Source: a virus (lineage: Duplodnaviria; Heunggongvirae; Uroviricota; Caudoviricetes). Taken from it: a stretch of DNA of 64,000 nt. This document shows positions 4,826 through 64,000 of this stretch, one piece after another; position 1 is the first letter of the stretch; every line of letters begins with the position of its first letter. The translations under genes and the position numbers were made by a program. The stretch lies in IMG/VR virus record IMGVR_UViG_2609459792_000007; one strand, given 5' to 3'. Under the pieces are notes generated by a model. The model ran no database searches and was not told the origin of the DNA. It was given only the letters and a program-made list of their open reading frames with translations.

Positions 4826-5200
4826 ATGGGACTTGATATCTATATCGAGACGCAGCCTAAAAACGATCTGAATAACGAGGCATCCAGAAAGCAGGTTGCT
4901 TACTTCCGTAAGTTCAATGCGCTCGTTGGGTGGATGGAGCGCAACGTAGGTGAAGTCGAAAATTGTGAGCTTTTAGAATTAACGATGAATGACATTTGTT
5001 TTCTGAAGGCTCATTTGATGCACATAAACGAAAGTAATTGCGAAGAGTACTTGCCTACCCGGGAAGGTTTTTTCTTCGGCAGTCAGGAGTACGATGAAGG
5101 TTACTGGCATGATGTGGGGCAGTTGAAAGAGCTTGTGGAAGATCTGATTAAGAACCACGACTTTCACAATAACAGACTGACCTTCTGCGCCTGGTGGTAA
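4826..5200 (+). CDS. hypothetical protein
   Basis: ATG 4826 with RBS aaggaaac; ORF track start at 4784. Confidence 0.6.
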   Translation: MGLDIYIETQPKNDLNNEASRKQVAYFRKFNALVGWMERNVGEVENCELLELTMNDICFLKAHLMHINESNCEEYLPTREGFFFGSQEYDEGYWHDVGQLKELVEDLIKNHDFHNNRLTFCAWW

Positions 5201-5202
5201 AT

Positions 5203-5346
5203 ATGGGCGATTTCAAGAAACGCCTGAAGGAAAGAGCCGAGATGGTCAGAAAGCGAAACGCCTCTTCTGTCATCAGATACGCAAGGCAGTTTAGTCGCAA
5301 CAACAAATCAGTTGAGGAAAAGATCCTTAGCGTAATCGGGCGATAA
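5203..5346 (+). CDS. possible small basic protein (47 aa), below ORF-track size cutoff
   Basis: ATG 3 nt after the upstream stop; K/R-rich translation MGDFKKRLKERAEMVRKRNA...; ends just before terminator. Confidence 0.3.
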   Translation: MGDFKKRLKERAEMVRKRNASSVIRYARQFSRNNKSVEEKILSVIGR

Positions 5347-5349
5347 TTA

Positions 5350-5377
5350 TTAAGGCCACCAGCATTGGTGGCCTTAA
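5350..5377 (+). terminator. hairpin terminator, copy 1 of a twin element
   Basis: ttaaggccacca-gcat-tggtggccttaa. Confidence 0.6.
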
Positions 5378-5501
5378 ATGACTTTTAATAACCGAAGGTT
5401 AGTTTGAAACCTGGCTATCAACTTCCAGAACCTTTCTTGTGTATTCAGCCTGTATTAACTTCTTTTATGCCTTATCTACACTGCGATAATTACACCAACA
5501 A

Positions 5502-5518
5502 GAAAACAACATGTTTAC
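5502..5518. promoter_or_regulatory. operator variant GAAAACAACATGTTTAC (family A)
   Basis: Preceded by GATAAT (5485-5490) plus tacaccaac spacer as at 3345 and 5970. Confidence 0.5.
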
Positions 5519-5535
5519 GCAGTGAGGATATGCTC

Positions 5536-5817
5536 ATGACTGATTTCACCATTACCCCTAAAGCACAAAATGTATTCCTTGAATCATGGCTGGACTTGCC
5601 GGAAACAGAACAGCAAGAAATGGATCATGTGGATTATGACGAGCAGGTAAGCACGCGATTCTTCCACTTTGAGGGCTGCGTTTACGACATTGCCGACTTC
5701 ATGCGAGATGACCGCTTCCCTGAATGGCACGCCAGTTATCCACTAAACGCCTTTGCCATGCTGATGATCCGTGTGGATGATTCAGGGGATACCATCGACA
5801 TCGGTCTGCTCCACTAA
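5536..5817 (+). CDS. hypothetical small acidic protein
   Basis: ATG 5536 with RBS gagga 7 nt upstream; D/E-rich. Confidence 0.6.
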   Translation: MTDFTITPKAQNVFLESWLDLPETEQQEMDHVDYDEQVSTRFFHFEGCVYDIADFMRDDRFPEWHASYPLNAFAMLMIRVDDSGDTIDIGLLH

Positions 5818-5820
5818 AGA

Positions 5821-5848
5821 TTAAGGCCACCAATGCTGGTGGCCTTAA
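5821..5848 (+). terminator. hairpin terminator, copy 2 of twin element (loop inverted)
   Basis: ttaaggccacca-atgc-tggtggccttaa; same stem as 5350 with loop gcat changed to atgc. Confidence 0.6.
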
Positions 5849-5986
5849 ATGACCATCCTGTTTCCCGCAGGCTAAAAACACCAACCTCTTACCTCCAGGC
5901 AACCGACAAACCCACCTGTTCCCGTCCGGCTACCGCAACTTTCCACTTTGACGCCTTATTCGTACAACGATAATTAACACCAACAA

Positions 5987-6002
5987 GAAAACAATTTGTT
6001 AT
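5987..6002. promoter_or_regulatory. sigma70-like promoter plus family A operator GAAAACAATTTGTTAT
   Basis: TTTGAC (5946-5951), 16-nt spacer, GATAAT (5968-5973), then the dyad, then RBS aagga. Confidence 0.6.
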
Positions 6003-6021
6003 TTACGATAAGGAATTAATC

Positions 6022-6504
6022 ATGAATTTTATCGCTACTGTAAACGCACCCGCACATGGCAATATCGCTGTAACGTTCTCTGACATTGAAAAACGAGTAC
6101 TTGGTGCATGGCGCGACAATGAGACGGTAGAACTGTCAGCACAAGAAAAATGCATTATTGCACGCGACATCATTGGCAATCGTCGTTACTCGCGGGTATT
6201 TGAGAAAGCGTATGTGGTAAATTCTGGGTTCGGAACGTTCGTCTTTCCGGTGCGCTCCGGGCGATTCTGCCAGTCCAAGCTGATTGAGTTCGCTACGCAG
6301 ATTTCTGTCTGGATTAAAACTCAATCGTCGTTCAAATTTTCCGACGATGAAGCAGTATCGCAGGGGATGCGGATCGCCAACAATGCGATTAAATGCAAAA
6401 ACATTACGTATACCGCTGGCGTTGACACATGGAAACTGTTTTGCGCTAACTTTATGCTGAATGTATACGCAAGCAACCGCATCCACATCCTTGATGGCGT
6501 GTAA
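6022..6504 (+). CDS. hypothetical protein (160 aa)
   Basis: ATG with RBS aaggaa; preceded by promoter/operator module. Confidence 0.65.
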   Translation: MNFIATVNAPAHGNIAVTFSDIEKRVLGAWRDNETVELSAQEKCIIARDIIGNRRYSRVFEKAYVVNSGFGTFVFPVRSGRFCQSKLIEFATQISVWIKTQSSFKFSDDEAVSQGMRIANNAIKCKNITYTAGVDTWKLFCANFMLNVYASNRIHILDGV

Positions 6505-6513
6505 CTGAGAAGA

Positions 6514-6535
6514 GGGCCAGAAACGGCCCTTTCTC
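6514..6535 (+). terminator. hairpin terminator
   Basis: gggcc-agaaac-ggccc followed by tttctc. Confidence 0.6.
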
Positions 6536-6553
6536 TATAGCCACCAGCTGCCG

Positions 6554-6633
6554 CAGGGAAATTTTCAGAAACGGCGAGGAACGTATTCATGAGCCGACGG
6601 GAAACGGCCAGGATTTTTTCGGGAAACGGCTGC
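6554..6633. repeat. second iteron-like cluster TTTTC(A/G)GGAAACGGC
   Basis: cagaaacggcgagg 6566, cgggaaacggccagg 6598, cgggaaacggctgc 6620; last two exactly 22 bp apart. Confidence 0.55.
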
Positions 6634-7088
6634 ATTCGCCTTTATGTAGAAAAAACATCGGGAAGCTGGTGGAATCCAACCAGCGGTTGTCGGACAGGCG
6701 AGCGGGGAAAATTATGATGACTTTCGTCGCCTGATACATCCAGATTTCTTTCGTAGCGTAATCACATACGTGATTAAGTGGTGTGATTATGTGAAAAATC
6801 ACGCGCACATAATACGCGAGCGGACACAGAACAACACAAAATGCCGATCCGCGCCGACAAATAAACGCGGATCACATAGCAAGACTAAAAGCCAATGATT
6901 AACCATACGCTATAGCGCAATATAACGCGTTTTAAGCGCGTTAATGTGTTAAGTAATGGGTATGTACTGGCAAGGATATAAAAGCGCGTCTATGGCGTTA
7001 TTTTGGCGCTTATTTTTATGTTGTTGGAGTGAGTTAAAGACAATAAAAAACGCCCCATCATGGGCGGGTTATGGGGGGAGTATTGAAA

Positions 7089-45857: not shown

Positions 45858-46526
45858 ATGACCAAGATCTTTGTGGTTGGCGGCACAAAGGGCGGGCCTG
45901 GCAAATCCACCGTTGCCCAGCAAATTGCCGTTTGCCTGAAAGTCAAAAAGAAGAAGAAGGTTTATATCACTGATATAGATATTCAGCGCACGACAACAAG
46001 CTGGTGTGAAGACCGTCGACAGAACGAAGACCTTGAGCTGATTCCTTTTGCATACGTTCAGGATGACATCATTAAGCACCTAAAATCGCTTCAGGGTAGA
46101 GCTGAGTTTGTAGTGGTAGATGCTGGTGGCTTTGACTCCGAAATTCAGCGACAAGCGATGCTGATGGCCGACGTTATCATTATCCCGCTTCGTCCTAAGC
46201 GTCGTGATTTGAAATCTCTGCGTGACATCGATCCTATTATCGACAATGTTCGTAATGTAAACGATAAAGTGAAGGTCCGCGCGGTCATGAACCAGTGCCC
46301 GGCTTTGCCATCACAAGTGTCTCGCATTCTGGCGGCTAAAGAGATTGTCGAGACGTTTGGCATCGAGTCTGCGCCAGTCAATCTATATAACCGCAACGTC
46401 TACGATGATGCGGAAGAGTCAGGTCGTTCTATCTTTGAAATGACCGGTAGCGAGCGCGACAAAAAGGCGGAAGCCGAGTTTGAAGAATTTGTAGATTATC
46501 TGTTGAGTCTGGAGGAAGAAGAATAA
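45858..46526 (+). CDS. ParA/MinD-family partition ATPase (small type)
   Basis: Deviant Walker A GGTKGGPGKST; about 220 aa. Confidence 0.8.
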   Translation: MTKIFVVGGTKGGPGKSTVAQQIAVCLKVKKKKKVYITDIDIQRTTTSWCEDRRQNEDLELIPFAYVQDDIIKHLKSLQGRAEFVVVDAGGFDSEIQRQAMLMADVIIIPLRPKRRDLKSLRDIDPIIDNVRNVNDKVKVRAVMNQCPALPSQVSRILAAKEIVETFGIESAPVNLYNRNVYDDAEESGRSIFEMTGSERDKKAEAEFEEFVDYLLSLEEEE

Positions 46527-46885
46527 TGTCCATGAAAATGGGTGACCTAGCAAAGCGCAAAGAGCCTGATGCACCGGCTAAGAACACAACTCCTTTGCGC
46601 CAACCAGTCAGACCACAAGGACGCCCGACTCGTGGCAAAGAGAAAATTAAAAGCCGCACTATGTCACTGGAAGACGAATACTTCGAGCTTCTGGAAATGA
46701 TGAAGTTTATCCCTCGTTTCGAGAAGTTCACCCGCTCTGATGTGATTCGTGCTGCTATTTTCCATCTGGCAGAGAAGTCACCGCAGGAAATCGAGGACAT
46801 CGTGAAACTTAACGAGGCGATCACCGCTGCCGATGTCACGATGCGTACCGATGAAATCAAACGAGAGTTGATGAAGAAAGGTTAA
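46526..46885 (+). CDS. putative partition centromere-binding protein
   Basis: Coupled to ParA-like gene (ATGTCCATG overlap); basic N-terminus and ribbon-helix-helix-like C-terminal half. Confidence 0.5.
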   Translation: MSMKMGDLAKRKEPDAPAKNTTPLRQPVRPQGRPTRGKEKIKSRTMSLEDEYFELLEMMKFIPRFEKFTRSDVIRAAIFHLAEKSPQEIEDIVKLNEAITAADVTMRTDEIKRELMKKG

Positions 46886-46890
46886 AAATC

Positions 46891-46921
46891 ATGCATTGGC
46901 GCGTACATTGCGCCAATGCAT
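46891..46921. repeat. perfect 12-bp inverted repeat atgcattggcgc-N7-gcgccaatgcat
   Basis: Directly downstream of partition operon, between convergent genes. Confidence 0.7.
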
Positions 46922-54267: not shown

Positions 54268-54466
54268 GCGGGAGAAGGAAACGCTTCATGAAATCAGTAA
54301 GTGGCCGGAGTTCCCTGAGTACTGGAAGCCTAAAACGCGGGCTAAGTTAGAGCGGTTAGGGTTGGTTGCAAACGTTTCTGAAACGTGGTGTTCGGCCAAC
54401 TACCAGTTAACTGATAAAGGGAAAGTATTGCTACAGCAATTAGTAGAATCAGGAGCGTTAAAATGA
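54251..54466 (+). CDS. hypothetical protein (71 aa)
   Basis: ORF with RBS gaaggag. Confidence 0.45.
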   Translation: MIVLSKREKETLHEISKWPEFPEYWKPKTRAKLERLGLVANVSETWCSANYQLTDKGKVLLQQLVESGALK

Positions 54467-54615
54467 TTCCATACATCTCATTAGCTTTTATGGGTGGCTT
54501 CCTTATTGGCTTCGGCATCTGTCGTGATTTAATTAAGCAGGAACTTAAAACCAAAACACTGTGCATCGGAAAGCGTGTGTATCGGGTAGTTCATGAAACA
54601 AAGGTTAGAAAATGA
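54463..54615 (+). CDS. small membrane protein (50 aa), paralogue-like, not in ORF track
   Basis: RBS aggagcg; starts with the ATGATTCCATACATC word; TM helix then RVYRVVHET. Confidence 0.35.
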   Translation: MIPYISLAFMGGFLIGFGICRDLIKQELKTKTLCIGKRVYRVVHETKVRK

Positions 54616-54933: not shown

Positions 54934-55681
54934 TTATATGTATAAGATGACTTTGTTTTCGTTGAGACGCGACTGTTTGAACTTAAATACAAGTGCAAAC
55001 GAAGAAGTCTATCTGGCAGTAGCCTAATAAGCCAAACACCAGCGAGGTCAGTTTCCAGCCTCGTTACCGAAATGGGACACACTGAGCGAGTGTGATTGCA
55101 GAACGCAGGAGGGAACATTCATGTTCCCTCCGATGAAGTAACAGAATGGGCGGTTGGTATATTTTCAACTCCATATGACTCCCGGATTCTTAGCCACTGA
55201 CCGCCCATTCTGTTACGTCATTTTGTTCAATTATGTCGTTTATACTGGGTTAAAAAGCGGCGACGTAGCCCGGCTGGTATGGTCAGCCAGCACACAACGT
55301 TGAGGCCATTACATTTTTATCAATTCTAAGGTTCTATTCACAGAGATACCGGCGAGCGTTGATATGTAACATGTTGGGCAAACATTCAATCGGAGTAGTG
55401 GCCTCAACGTTGTGAAAATAGGATAGTTGTGTAGGTTTAACCACTGTTGCCATTGGTACCTGTTTTCACAACAAATGATTCCATACATCACATTGTATAA
55501 ATTACAAAGTAGGTGCTGTCCTCAGAAACATCATCTACTTAAATAATTTGCCTTCTACTATTGAGCGAAGTCGAAAGCGTCTGGCACTAACGAAAAGTGC
55601 AAGTAGCGGTGCGTTTCCTGGCAGAAACTAACACCGCCGCGATTGGCACTGTTGAGTAATAAATACTGGCAGTGCTGAATT

Positions 55682-55756
55682 GATGGTGTAGCTCAGCGGT
55701 AGAGCAGTTGGCTGTTAACCAACTGGTCGGTGGTTCGAATCCACCCACCATCGCCA
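55682..55756 (+). tRNA. tRNA-Asn (anticodon GTT)
   Basis: Manual cloverleaf: acceptor gatggtg/caccatc, D arm gctc-agcggta-gagc, anticodon loop ctGTTaa, T loop ttcgaat. Confidence 0.85.
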
Positions 55757-55761
55757 ATTTA

Positions 55762-55848
55762 GGGGAGTTAGTCCGTAGAGGTAGCGGGGTAGACTGTAAA
55801 TCTACTGTCATGGAGACTCGGGTGGTTCGACTCCATCACTCCCCACCA
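55762..55848 (+). tRNA. tRNA-Tyr (anticodon GTA), long variable arm
   Basis: Acceptor ggggagt/actcccc, anticodon stem-loop gtaga-ctGTAaa-tctac, long variable arm, T loop ttcgact, 3' CCA. Confidence 0.7.
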
Positions 55849-55852
55849 AATT

Positions 55853-55928
55853 GCCGGTTTAGCTCAGTTGGTAGAGCGCCTGCCTTGTAAGCAGGATGTC
55901 AGCGGTTCGAGTCCGTTAACCGGCACCA
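55853..55928 (+). tRNA. tRNA-Thr (anticodon TGT)
   Basis: Acceptor gccggtt/aaccggc, D arm gctc-agttggta-gagc, anticodon loop ctTGTaa, T loop ttcgagt, 3' CCA. Confidence 0.8.
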
Positions 55929-56152
55929 ATACAACGATAAGATCATTACGGTTAATCGTCGTTCATGTGCACAATGACTGGTCGAAAGGTAGTGATCTTA
56001 CCGTTGTGGTGGATTCGCAGACTGATGCGATAGCTTTCTTGGATGTTAGGGAAATGCGGCCGCAAATCTTCCCTTTCGCGAGCGGTGATCGTCCGTAGTC
56101 CTAATTGGCTGCACCGTATGCCGGAGATTCAGTACCGGCCACCACAACGGCC

Positions 56153-56239
56153 GGAGAGTAGGGAGCATGGTGCTCAAGCGGTCTTGAAAACCGTCCCATT
56201 GCGCAAGCGATGATGGTTCGATTCCATTACTCTCCGCCA
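56153..56239 (+). tRNA. tRNA-Ser (anticodon TGA), long variable arm
   Basis: Acceptor ggagagt/actctcc, anticodon stem-loop gcggt-ctTGAaa-accgt, long variable arm, T loop ttcgatt, 3' CCA. Confidence 0.7.
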
Positions 56240-56396
56240 GACACAGCGTTGAGCGGTTTGGCCTTTTAATCAACTCGATTAAGACTCCGCTAACATAAAC
56301 CAGACCGCTCAACGCTGTGATAGACAATTACGGCAGACGTTCTTAACCATAGCTTGCTAACATCCTAGCAACACTTTTTTTCAGCGCAAAATTCAA

Positions 56397-57053: not shown

Positions 57054-57131
57054 TTTTAACGGCTCACAGGAGCCGTTTTTATTACCACCAAACTCACTCC
57101 CATTTCCCTTAAAATTCAAAAAACAACGTCA

Positions 57132-57164
57132 AAATGATTCCATACCTACTATGTATGGAATCAT
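57132..57164. other. candidate site-specific recombination site: perfect 13-7-13 inverted repeat
   Basis: AATGATTCCATAC-ctactat-GTATGGAATCATT, 100 bp upstream of tyrosine recombinase gene. Confidence 0.55.
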
Positions 57165-57217
57165 TAGTGAAAATGAGTTACTTTTACTCTTGATCCTATA
57201 AGAATCTATGCCTAATA

Positions 57218-57237
57218 TACTGTTTACTTATACAGTG
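57218..57237. promoter_or_regulatory. LexA-box-like sequence upstream of recombinase gene
   Basis: TACTGT-ttacttat-ACAGTG fits CTGT-N8-ACAG; 27 bp upstream of ATG 57264. Confidence 0.45.
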
Positions 57238-57263: not shown

Positions 57264-58367
57264 ATGAAAAATAGCTTTGACAGAGCACGCGCTGCGGAGA
57301 ACACCTCAAAAGAGGCGATTGAGTATCTCGAAAGAGCATCTCAAATGCAGGCCGTTATGATCTCGCAGGTTAGCATTGATATGAGATTCTCGGACGCATT
57401 CATGTTATTCACTCGCTTATCTCTGCTGATAACCAGACGTCGGCCAGAGATCGCTGTTCATTGTATTTTGATACATGTTTTGCCGCACATTGCCGATGTA
57501 AAAGTAAGTGACATTAATAGGTTCATGGTGAACCAGCTGGTCAACCCACTAATACTGGATGGCAAAATTGTTATGGGCCGCCGCGTTTTCTCTCTGATGA
57601 AACAGTTCCTTAGCTGGTGCGCCTTCCAGGGGATGATAGACGTGTCACCGTTAAACGATATGTCACTAAACAAAGTTGCCGGTGGCGCAAAGCCCACACC
57701 TCGCGAGCGGAAGCTGACCGACGCAGAGGTATGGGTGTTCTGGAATATATGGGACTACTTCAATGTGTGCGCTGGTACAAAATGGGCGGCCAGGCTGTGT
57801 CTTGTATCAGCAAGACGACCTGACGAAGTACTGCGGGCTAAAAAAAGTGAGTTCAATCTTAAGCGTGGGGTTTGGAATCAAGGCAAGAGAAACAAGTCAG
57901 CACGTGAGCATTCGCTGCCTTTAAGCACATTAATGCGCACATGCATTGAAGAGTTGTTCGAATACGGTAAAGACAGCCAGTGGCTCGTGCCTTCGAATAA
58001 AAAAATCGGGAAAGACCTTCCTATGTCTAAAGTGGCAATAGCCCAGGCATTACGTCGTATTCTGGAACGACCAGAACTGATGGAGCTTGAGCCATTTACA
58101 CCCCGAGATTTGCGCCGTACTGCGCGTAGTTACTTCCCAGCATTAGGCATAAGCCAGGAGGTATCACGCAAAATCATGAACCACAGTCTTGAGGGGATAG
58201 ATCGGGTCTACGACCGGCACGATTATATGGACGAGATGCGAGACGCCTTAGAAAGTTTCTCGACGTACATCGCATCAATCGTAGAGCAACCGGATTTAGA
58301 CGAAATTGACCACAAATTCAAGGGAGATCGTCTATCAACAGAGCTTATTCGTGTAAATTTTTCATAG
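57264..58367 (+). CDS. tyrosine recombinase / integrase family protein
   Basis: C-terminal catalytic-domain-like residues (ARRPDE, DLRRTARSY, MNHS, RVYDRHDY). Confidence 0.7.
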   Translation: MKNSFDRARAAENTSKEAIEYLERASQMQAVMISQVSIDMRFSDAFMLFTRLSLLITRRRPEIAVHCILIHVLPHIADVKVSDINRFMVNQLVNPLILDGKIVMGRRVFSLMKQFLSWCAFQGMIDVSPLNDMSLNKVAGGAKPTPRERKLTDAEVWVFWNIWDYFNVCAGTKWAARLCLVSARRPDEVLRAKKSEFNLKRGVWNQGKRNKSAREHSLPLSTLMRTCIEELFEYGKDSQWLVPSNKKIGKDLPMSKVAIAQALRRILERPELMELEPFTPRDLRRTARSYFPALGISQEVSRKIMNHSLEGIDRVYDRHDYMDEMRDALESFSTYIASIVEQPDLDEIDHKFKGDRLSTELIRVNFS

Positions 58368-62929: not shown

Positions 62930-64000
62930 ATGAAGGCACTGATGGTTCGAACTGACTTCTCACTTGGGGAGTCGGCTCTAAAAGCAGAAAACGCGGTGAA
63001 GATTGCCAGAGAAGCTGGCTACACCGCTGTAATTTCAGCAGATAGCATGAATATTGCGAGCGTTATTCCACTACAACGTGCCGCTGGTGACGACATGGCG
63101 GTTATTTGTGGTGTGAAACTAAACATTGTTGATGATCCCACATACGAGCACCGGGCTAAACTTGCTAAAGAATCTATGAGATGTATGGAATCATTAGAGC
63201 GGGGACGTAACTACTCGTTTACCGCTCTAATTAAAAATGAGCAAGGATATCGCGACATCTGCGAACTAATGACGGCGGCCAACACACGAGAACAGTTCTA
63301 CTTTGTACCGCGTCTCTCGCTCGAACAGTTGGTTTCTACATATGCCAAAGGCAACATCATCCTGCTTACTTCCGACATCGGTAGCGTGTTCCAACGCAAC
63401 GATTTTGCAAAAATCATAAGCACACTGATTACAGCGGGTGGAAAAGACAACTTCTATAGTGTGGTTTATCCGCACCCTACCCCATTCTACGACCAGATTA
63501 ACGTCCGGGCGATGAAAGTCGCCAGCGCATTGAAAATAGAGCCAGTGGCGTTCTATCCCGCTTATTACGAATCGATCGACGATGCAGACATTAAAGACAT
63601 TGCGCACATGGTTACGAACAACATAAAAATCGACCAGCCGCATCGTCTGCGTATCCCCCACCAGCGAGATAACGCCGTCAATGGTCGCCGCCATCTCCTT
63701 GAGGCGCTTAAAGCCTTCTCCGTTCGCATGGATGTGCCGGTAACAGCTGCAATGGCCTCAACAACGCAGGACTCCATTATCGAAGCCTGTACATGGCGCT
63801 GGCATGAATTGCCACCAGCACTGCCCAAGATGGCAGACGACGAGCCTGCAACGCTGATGAAACTGGCTGTTGCAGGGCTGCGCAAACGTCTTACCACAAA
63901 AGAGTTTGGCTACACACCACCGGCTTCTGAGAACAGGGTTTATGTTGAGCGACTTAAGTACGAAATGGACACGCTTACTCGCCTGGGATTTTGTGGTTAC
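62930..64000 (+). CDS. DNA polymerase III alpha-like protein, N-terminal PHP region (3' end outside window)
   Basis: Open frame from ATG 62930 (RBS aaagg) to window end, absent from ORF track because it has no stop; layout resembles DnaE N-terminus. Confidence 0.6.
   Translation, partial: MKALMVRTDFSLGESALKAENAVKIAREAGYTAVISADSMNIASVIPLQRAAGDDMAVICGVKLNIVDDPTYEHRAKLAKESMRCMESLERGRNYSFTALIKNEQGYRDICELMTAANTREQFYFVPRLSLEQLVSTYAKGNIILLTSDIGSVFQRNDFAKIISTLITAGGKDNFYSVVYPHPTPFYDQINVRAMKVASALKIEPVAFYPAYYESIDDADIKDIAHMVTNNIKIDQPHRLRIPHQRDNAVNGRRHLLEALKAFSVRMDVPVTAAMASTTQDSIIEACTWRWHELPPALPKMADDEPATLMKLAVAGLRKRLTTKEFGYTPPASENRVYVERLKYEMDTLTRLGFCGY

Follow-up and report, generated by a model that had tools for sequence, protein, structure and literature searches.

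A 33-bp palindrome beside int in an SSU5-like phage-plasmid as the probable core site of a tyrosine recombinase

The recombinase gene and its upstream region

The window, meaning the whole 64-kb stretch of DNA analyzed here, is assigned to an SSU5-like phage-plasmid. Its nearest relative is Escherichia phage Cyrano (97% identity across 92% of a 4.6-kb query). Further relatives are CMS-2020a, PhiR41_1, SSU5, and Klebsiella phage-plasmids (PMC9928086). The phage-plasmid genomes measure about 108-110 kb. The locus contains int, which encodes a tyrosine recombinase (Int), and the convergent gene of a helix-turn-helix (HTH) protein. Upstream of int lie a palindrome, a predicted promoter, and a predicted LexA box. 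Copies of a single palindrome arm are found on both sides (Table 1).

Table 1. Position of the features described in the text. Coordinates refer to the window.
Feature	Position	Strand	Sequence or remark
Single site c1	54463-54477	+	ATGATTCCATACATC; kept at its place while the flanks diverge
Single site c2	55475-55489	+	ATGATTCCATACATC; intergenic, ~190 bp upstream of the tRNA cluster
A/T-rich element	57110-57123	none	TAAAATTCAAAAAA; 10-23 bp left of the core
Core site	57133-57165	none	13-7-13; read from the sequence and an inverted-repeat scan
Core left arm	57133-57145		AATGATTCCATAC
Core spacer	57146-57152		ctactat, 7 bp
Core right arm	57153-57165		GTATGGAATCATT
Sigma-70-like int promoter	57190-57218	+	TTGATC (57190-57195), 17 nt, TAATAT (57213-57218)
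Predicted LexA (SOS) box	57218-57237	none	TACTGTTTACTTATACAGTG; reaches from the end of the -10 hexamer over the expected transcription start
Int, tyrosine recombinase, 367 aa	57264-58367	+	core-binding and catalytic domains
Decayed single site in int	57870-57880	-	reads TGATTCCAAAC
HTH protein gene, 128 aa	58362-58748	-	convergent with int, overlapping its end
Single site c5	63180-63194	-	ATGATTCCATACATC; in the DNA polymerase III alpha gene, 250 bp into the gene

The initial annotation described a perfect inverted repeat at 57132-57164, about 100 bp upstream of the recombinase gene. The repeat exists, with 13 perfect base pairs per arm and a 7-bp spacer, and lies one base further on than annotated. 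Its end precedes the -35 hexamer by 25 bp and the int ATG by 98 bp. The repeat tool gives it 16-nt arms of 94% complementarity and 1 nt between them. This corresponds to the 13 perfect pairs, then one mismatch and two more pairs (15/16 paired). It is the best of the 13 short-spaced inverted repeats in the window, and none of the others has perfect arms longer than 12 bp. As single-stranded DNA, the palindrome folds with -12 kcal/mol, against -2.6 for shuffled sequences (z = -7).

Most left-flank classes have motifs related to the A/T-rich element (cAGAATTTAAA / TTCAAAAAA) at a similar place, 10-25 bp to the left of the core. The element may serve in DNA bending or as an accessory sequence. Loci with 99%-identical Int switch their left-flank class close to the arm and carry different cargo beyond it. 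The stretch from the glutaredoxin gene to the palindrome (57054-57132 and its equivalents in relatives) is a hot spot for such cargo. It holds a 555-bp gene in Cyrano and, elsewhere, a YafO toxin pair or a gadW-like regulator. Citrobacter-type relatives present a 157-aa gene plus variable neighbors. In the relatives compared, no second site bounds these genes. Among ~99% identical loci, the bases just outside both arms (57125-57130 and 57166-57168) are polymorphism hot spots, and the 31-bp site is invariant. In PhiR41_1 (L002, 5998-6039) and L035, the palindrome grows to perfect 17-bp arms (cagtAATGATTCCATAC / GTATGGAATCATTactg), so that the left flank now mirrors the right one.

Int matches the Pfam family PF00589 (Phage_integrase; E = 5.4e-10, 39.7 bits, cut-off 27.1) and, weakly, the central core-binding domain PF22022. 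Its catalytic domain and catalytic residues are those of the tyrosine recombinase superfamily. The arm-binding domain PF13356 was not detected in Int by the Pfam search; it is present in distant relatives of 26-34% identity. The best curated family is the P4-type PRK09692. It aligns with Int residues 71-336 from model position 137, and its score of 33.7 bits is far under the family cut-off of 434. The AlphaFold2 model of Int has a pLDDT of 82, with residues 1-70 at the N-terminus predicted as helical. According to Foldseek, this model is closest to the core-binding and catalytic domains of Tn1549 Int and lambda Int. Xer (XerH, XerA), IntI, and Cre rank after them, and the probability is 1.00 for all. 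The Cre structures are 35th and below, with a TM of ~0.45. A search of the PDB with the single Int sequence gave no match at E <= 0.01. With the family profile, the matches at E <= 1 were limited to XerH and a phage-integrase core-binding domain, both weak. Likewise, neither the single-protein nor the family-profile search gave significant similarity to Cre.

The catalytic residues were assigned via the motifs RxxE, HxxR, NH, and YxR, without structure superposition. In an alignment of 24 homologues (42-87% identity), R185 (RxxE), K211, R284, H307, and Y316 are invariant. The position of the first catalytic histidine consists of an invariant arginine, R281 (TPRDLRRT, codon 58104-58106). Since the catalytic set is retained and the arm-binding domain is absent, Int looks like an active enzyme of the simple, arm-less type. 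Its predicted origin is a P4-type integrase minus the arm-binding domain.

The int promoter was left unflagged by the promoter scan, with 8/12 positions against a threshold of 9/12. Its hexamers and spacing are kept in nearly all the enterobacterial-clade loci shown; L057 has variant hexamers. The box TACTGTTTACTTATACAGTG is the only exact TACTGT-N8-ACAG in the window, and its place at the int promoter is that expected in the LexA regulon. All enterobacterial-clade loci have CTG-N10-CAG at the same position, mostly as CTGT-N8-ACAG, and the inner 8 nt vary. Box and hexamers are absent from L065, and no LexA box was seen upstream of int in the distant loci L074-L076. Because this conserved box overlaps the promoter, int is probably SOS-inducible. 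Integron integrases are SOS-inducible as well; Cre and Xer are not known to be.

The 128-aa protein presents a weak HTH_19 match and is annotated in Cyrano as a putative repressor. Its gene neighbors int in all the phage-plasmids examined.

Other structured elements are present in the window. The tRNA cluster at 55682-56239 comprises four genes (Asn, Tyr, Thr, Ser); Cyrano is annotated with three. A part of it is ~94% identical to the tRNA regions of phages P7 and D6, which suggests that tRNA cassettes are exchanged between unrelated phage-plasmids. Between 53.5 and 64 kb, tRNAs are the only known RNA families found. Three long stems (55133-55221, 55293-55414, and 56242-56319; 20-22 bp, 95% complementarity, 38-82-nt loops) sit in the non-coding stretch around the tRNA genes. 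None of them matches Rfam, and two have CACA(A/G)CGTTGAG in common. A 14-bp stem at 55409-55472 stops right before c2. Another perfect palindrome, 12-7-12, is located at 46891-46921 (ATGCATTGGCGC-gtacatt-GCGCCAATGCAT) and starts 6 bp past a 222-aa/119-aa ORF pair (45858-46885). This palindrome is a candidate partition (centromere) site because the adjoining pair resembles that of L076, a ParA-like protein plus a small protein. Finally, identical perfect 12-4-12 hairpins (TTAAGGCCACCA....TGGTGGCCTTAA) are placed 471 bp apart at 5350-5377 and 5821-5848. They could be terminators or a repeated element.

Co-occurrence of the palindrome and Int

We gathered ~100 loci encoding Int relatives from IMG/VR, GenBank, and genome contigs. 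The palindrome is upstream of int in every locus with an intact homologue (~100 loci, 42-100% identity). The distance to int is 19-130 bp; in Pantoea, 19 bp separate it from the ATG. The sole exception is L088, where a ~1.9-kb insertion lies between palindrome and int (4963-7001).

The arms comprise 10-14 bp, and the spacer has exactly 7 bp in all the lineages examined. Down to an Int identity of 56%, the arms consist of the invariant TGATTCCATAC. In L065, the outermost arm position is altered on both sides in a compensatory way (TTGATT...AATCAA). Homologues of 42-48% identity show TGACTCCAGAC on both sides, as in Pantoea, Xenorhabdus, Providencia, and Rahnella, or hybrids of both arm types, as in Photorhabdus and L108. 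The spacer is still 7 bp in them.

At least 10 spacer sequences occur. They include ctactat, ctattaa, ttgtaag, ttggtag, ttggaag, tccttag, tctttag, and ttatata. The remaining ones, atagtag and ttaatag, are the exact reverse complements of ctactat and ctattaa. PhiR41_1 has atagtag and its near-twin L035 has ctactat, with both flanks identical. Likewise, the Buttiauxella lineage presents ttaatag, against ctattaa in its relatives. Judging from these alignments, the spacer has inverted in place at least two times. None of 214 E. coli plasmids has the flipped spacer (all ctactat), so flipping happens rarely and is no switch. Two routes fit it, repair after mis-aligned recombination by Int and template switching during replication from one perfect arm to the other, and it favors neither model over the other.

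Of 5426 complete E. coli genomes, 252 have the int/palindrome module. It occupies 262 places in them, every one on a plasmid (some plasmids are large, 198-231 kb) and none on a chromosome. We also scanned one genome per species, for 100,044 species, with the exact pattern TGATTCCATAC-N7-GTATGGAATCA. This full-site scan gave six places, each within 130 bp of an int homologue, and no stand-alone site apart from int. One of the six belongs to a Yersinia pestis contig whose 108 kb match plasmid pMT1 in size.

The pair is also found amid non-phage genes, on a 507-kb Pantoea vagans plasmid and a 723-kb Rahnella replicon; L108 is a third non-phage context. Both large replicons are megaplasmid-like, and their palindrome is intact, not split into attL/attR. 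In Pantoea L074 and in Rahnella L107 and L108, the HTH neighbor is gone and the palindrome is kept. Therefore, the site is tied to Int and not to another phage-plasmid protein. The HTH gene appears as a neighbor of the palindrome, not as a required partner.

Single half-sites on both sides of the core

The initial annotation reported two further copies of the arm plus ATC (aaatgattccatacatc), at 54461 and 55473. Both are exact. The total is higher, at least three plus one decayed copy. A fifth exact 13-mer copy is located in the DNA polymerase III alpha gene (63183-63195, minus strand), and the copy inside int has one mismatch; both were missed earlier. We counted the 11-mer TGATTCCATAC with up to one mismatch. 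It occurs seven times in the window against 0.98 expected, and none of 100 shuffles reached seven, so the copies are non-random. For an exact 13-mer, the estimated chance expectation is ~0.002 in 64 kb, both strands.

The sites differ in their context. The c1 site lies where one ORF ends and the next begins, and it overlaps the stop codon of the former and the start codon of the latter, which encodes 50 aa (54463-54615). The intergenic c2 is kept in diverged relatives. The site in int, decayed here, is a perfect TGATTCCATAC followed by ATC (sometimes ACC) in L065 and in many loci with ~86% Int identity. The plus strand of c5 encodes the residues CMESL. More precisely, its 11-mer is invariant in 80/80 clade-A loci (28 haplotypes), and the adjacent codons vary synonymously and non-synonymously. 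This check is unbiased, for the site was placed through the protein alignment. The CMESL peptide is missing from distant phage-plasmids. The single sites are read in different frames (MIPYI, CMESL, VWNQ). Invariance of the sites while flanks, frames, and encoded peptides change points to selection at the DNA level. In L033, a 9-bp tandem duplication (atgagatgt) lies right beside c5 (~6935-6965).

In the ~108-kb genome, the motif is restricted to a stretch of ~9 kb around int. Its copies are 0.7-6 kb from the core, on both sides, and have no second arm. In every lineage, the left sites are all on the plus strand and the right ones all on the minus strand, each pointing to the core. Taken alone, such convergence of three or four sites has a chance of no less than 1-in-8 to 1-in-16. 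Three of the four overlap or sit inside coding sequence; c2 is intergenic. The ATC on their spacer side is unlike every core spacer. No single sites were found in the distant Int clade or in the megaplasmid copies. Thus, they are unneeded for the basic reaction, and the distant clade offers no single sites in which co-variation could be compared.

The copies had been proposed as accessory or secondary sites. This is borne out in part: they are real and show DNA-level selection. As crossover partners, they are unlikely: they are one-armed, kilobases off, different from the core on the spacer side, and absent from the distant clade. A role as crossover partners or cassette boundaries was rejected on the missing second arm, the ATC unlike core spacers, and the two sites inside ORFs. 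Shufflons (Rci/sfx) have several one-armed sites with shared spacers and invert the segments between them. Here, the order + + / core / - - is fixed in all loci, which rejects shufflon sites, and the spacer-side sequences differ between single sites in most lineages. The c1 and c5 sites were also considered as ends of an invertible segment. They have 20 bp in common in this window, but identity past 14-15 bp is lost in other lineages, and from the reading of the sequence, the inversion would truncate the polymerase. No rearrangement between single sites was seen in any locus examined. Most simply, the single sites are extra putative Int monomer-binding sites that arose in the enterobacterial clade, and probably not crossover sites.

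Function and comparison with known systems

We consider it likely that the 33-bp palindrome is the core recombination site of Int, most likely for multimer resolution. The initial annotation had proposed a core site of the adjacent recombinase gene, and the observations support it. The palindrome accompanies every Int homologue, its arms co-vary symmetrically, and the 7-bp spacer is fixed. In addition, the pair occurs on non-phage megaplasmids without the HTH gene, and the site never occurs without int. The same annotation left resolution or integration as alternatives; resolution fits, and integration has against it the 262/262 plasmid-borne places in E. coli and the lack of an arm-binding domain. 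Multimer resolution is favored because of the plasmid lifestyle, the absence of the arm-binding domain, and the absence of a separate target site.

In the proposed mechanism, the 12-13-bp arms would be occupied by two Int monomers, with the DNA strands exchanged across the 7-bp spacer. The spacer asymmetry would set the direction of the site. The main job of the system would be to convert plasmid multimers into monomers. It might also circularize or monomerize the genome around the lytic cycle. With a LexA-repressed int promoter, Int activity would rise in the SOS response, a time when homologous recombination and prophage induction both increase. The analysis shows how the site is built, that site and gene occur and vary together, that the pair is restricted to plasmids, that the catalytic residues are retained, and that the single sites are conserved as DNA; we infer that Int binds and cleaves the site and resolves multimers, that LexA controls int, and whatever role the single sites may have.

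Some observations stand against this reading. A symmetric palindrome with a free spacer also resembles the operator of a dimeric regulator, and binding of Int by its own promoter could be purely autoregulatory. The first catalytic histidine is an arginine in Int. SOS control is unusual for a housekeeping resolution system, and a plain resolution model leaves the single sites unexplained. No natural dimers or cointegrates joined at the site were found among the carrier plasmids outside the 198-231 kb class.

Regulation is rather unlikely as the whole explanation. Palindrome and single sites would then form a network of operators for Int, or for an Int that only binds DNA, with int itself and the nearby replication and tRNA genes as targets and crossover incidental or absent. 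The single sites are one-armed, yet conserved as strongly as the arms, and the core adjoins the int promoter (25 bp from the -35 hexamer here, 19 bp from the ATG in Pantoea). On the other hand, the distant clade and the megaplasmid copies have the palindrome alone, and of the four single sites, three fall wholly or partly in coding sequence instead of intergenic promoters. A 7-bp crossover (overlap) region is typical of lambda-family integrases, and the strict 7-bp spacer of the whole family has this length. A precedent for regulation is MrpR of phage SPbeta, a recombinase-fold master repressor with a dispersed 15-bp element, SPBRE (PMC10516654). MrpR has lost its catalytic residues, while the Int family keeps all of them invariant. 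Binding by a different phage-plasmid protein, with the site merely beside int, is very unlikely. The 128-aa HTH protein would be the obvious example, as a constant neighbor of int in phage-plasmids. The C1 repressor of P1 does have dispersed asymmetric operators plus palindromic ones. However, the arm sequence follows the divergence of Int, and the HTH protein was rejected as binder, as the palindrome persists by int in L074, L107, and L108 without its gene.

Even less probable is an attP core at which Int inserts the element into a chromosomal attB. Annotators name the gene "integrase", the nearest curated family is that of P4-type integrases, and cluster summaries place some homologues on 0.2-0.9 Mb contigs. 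Among close Int homologues, for which contigs of 0.3-0.9 Mb are listed, the places inspected were plasmid-sized, with the same neighbors. Nevertheless, the two large replicons are megaplasmid-like, with an intact palindrome and no attL/attR split. The arms are perfectly symmetric, which typical attP cores are not, and Int has no arm-binding domain. Above all, the complete E. coli genomes contain no integrated copies (0/262 places), and the 100,044 species genomes no site apart from int; we rejected a chromosomal attP on these two results. The least probable alternative is selection for the fold and not for protein recognition, with a hairpin or cruciform that works, for instance, as a terminator, in single-strand initiation, or as part of an origin. 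The stable DNA hairpin (z = -7), the compensatory arm changes, and the two in-place spacer inversions, a known behavior of hairpin loops, are in agreement with it. Conversely, a purely structural stem does not need an arm sequence that stays invariant where the flanks are unalignable, and the same sequence is conserved in unpaired single copies. The palindrome also has no T-run, and a real terminator lies upstream at 57058-57077.

A second function of Int, concerning the single sites, seems unlikely. The converging half-sites might act as polar roadblocks, a fork trap, or a guiding array, or they might form an Int-dependent switch of replication and tRNA genes during induction. The array would be + + / core / - - over ~9 kb, partly in coding sequence, including the replicative polymerase gene of the element itself. 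This reading likens an array centered on a resolution site to the Ter sites and KOPS that flank dif.

In the literature on SSU5-type phage-plasmids and on phage-plasmid integrases and resolution, we found no description of this recombinase/site system. SSU5-like phage-plasmids are common; among them are plasmids of the Yersinia pestis pMT1 type and some that carry resistance genes. The literature searched gives no account of what protects them from loss through multimers. Their stability would be accounted for by a defined recombinase/site pair, which would in turn offer a means of curing or tracking such plasmids. The pair would moreover add an orthogonal tool of the lox kind, and the natural variants of its spacer may fail to cross-react. 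The predicted LexA box would tie site-specific recombination to the SOS response outside integrons. Finally, oriented half-sites inside genes are unexplained by current models of simple tyrosine recombinases.

Among known systems, simple arm-less recombinases have inverted arms around a 6-8-bp spacer and no arm-type DNA-binding domain. Int and the palindrome (13-7-13) show both features. Cre/loxP of P1 resembles them in its single tyrosine recombinase without an arm-binding domain, and in its two 13-bp inverted arms with a short asymmetric spacer. It is also borne by a plasmid-prophage, and multimer resolution and genome cyclization are expected of both. In contrast, the loxP spacer has 8 bp instead of 7, and Int is not a relative of Cre and stands outside the Cre family proper. 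Moreover, there is a LexA box in the promoter here, and conserved half-sites lie kilobases away.

XerH/difH, XerS/difSL, and the archaeal XerA/dif likewise comprise one recombinase and a near-palindromic site near its gene, and they resolve dimers. The fold of these single-recombinase Xer proteins resembles that of Int (Foldseek matches to XerH and XerA). Their arms of ~11 bp and spacers of 6 bp differ from the 12-13-bp arms and 7-bp spacer here. In addition, Xer/dif systems are chromosomal and under FtsK-type control, while the present pair is plasmid-borne and Int is nearer in sequence to P4-type integrases. Indeed, the heterobivalent integrases of the P4/CP4-57 type are the closest sequence family for the core-binding and catalytic domains of Int. 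They differ by their N-terminal arm-binding domain, and for Int no attB and no integrated copies were found. The lambda/P4 attP/attB type also has separate arm-type sites. Here, the extra sites carry the core-arm sequence and no distinct arm-type sequence.

TnpI/IRS of Tn4430 shares with the palindrome perfectly symmetric core arms and a spacer that sets direction. Its accessory sites DR1 and DR2 are the same recombinase-binding motif, adjacent to the core on one side (PMC2847244). Here, the extra motifs are 0.7-6 kb off, converge on the core from both sides, and lie in part within genes. MrpR (YopR) of the Bacillus phage SPbeta has a recombinase fold and is catalytically dead; its SPBRE element occurs at several places of the genome, in promoters (PMC10516654). 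Int keeps its catalytic residues and has a palindromic core, and most single sites are in or overlap coding sequence, with only c2 and the core intergenic.

In integrons, a LexA-controlled integrase gene lies next to a recombination site, and variable cargo genes follow beyond that site. Int resembles IntI/attI in the LexA-box promoter, the adjacent site, and the variable cargo of the left flank. However, the variable genes here have no attC-like bounds, the site is a perfect duplex palindrome, and IntI and Int are related by their shared fold only. Overall, the predicted mechanism of the int/palindrome pair is lox/dif-like, outside the Cre and Xer families. The LexA box and the conserved array of oriented half-sites set it apart from the known lox/dif-like systems.
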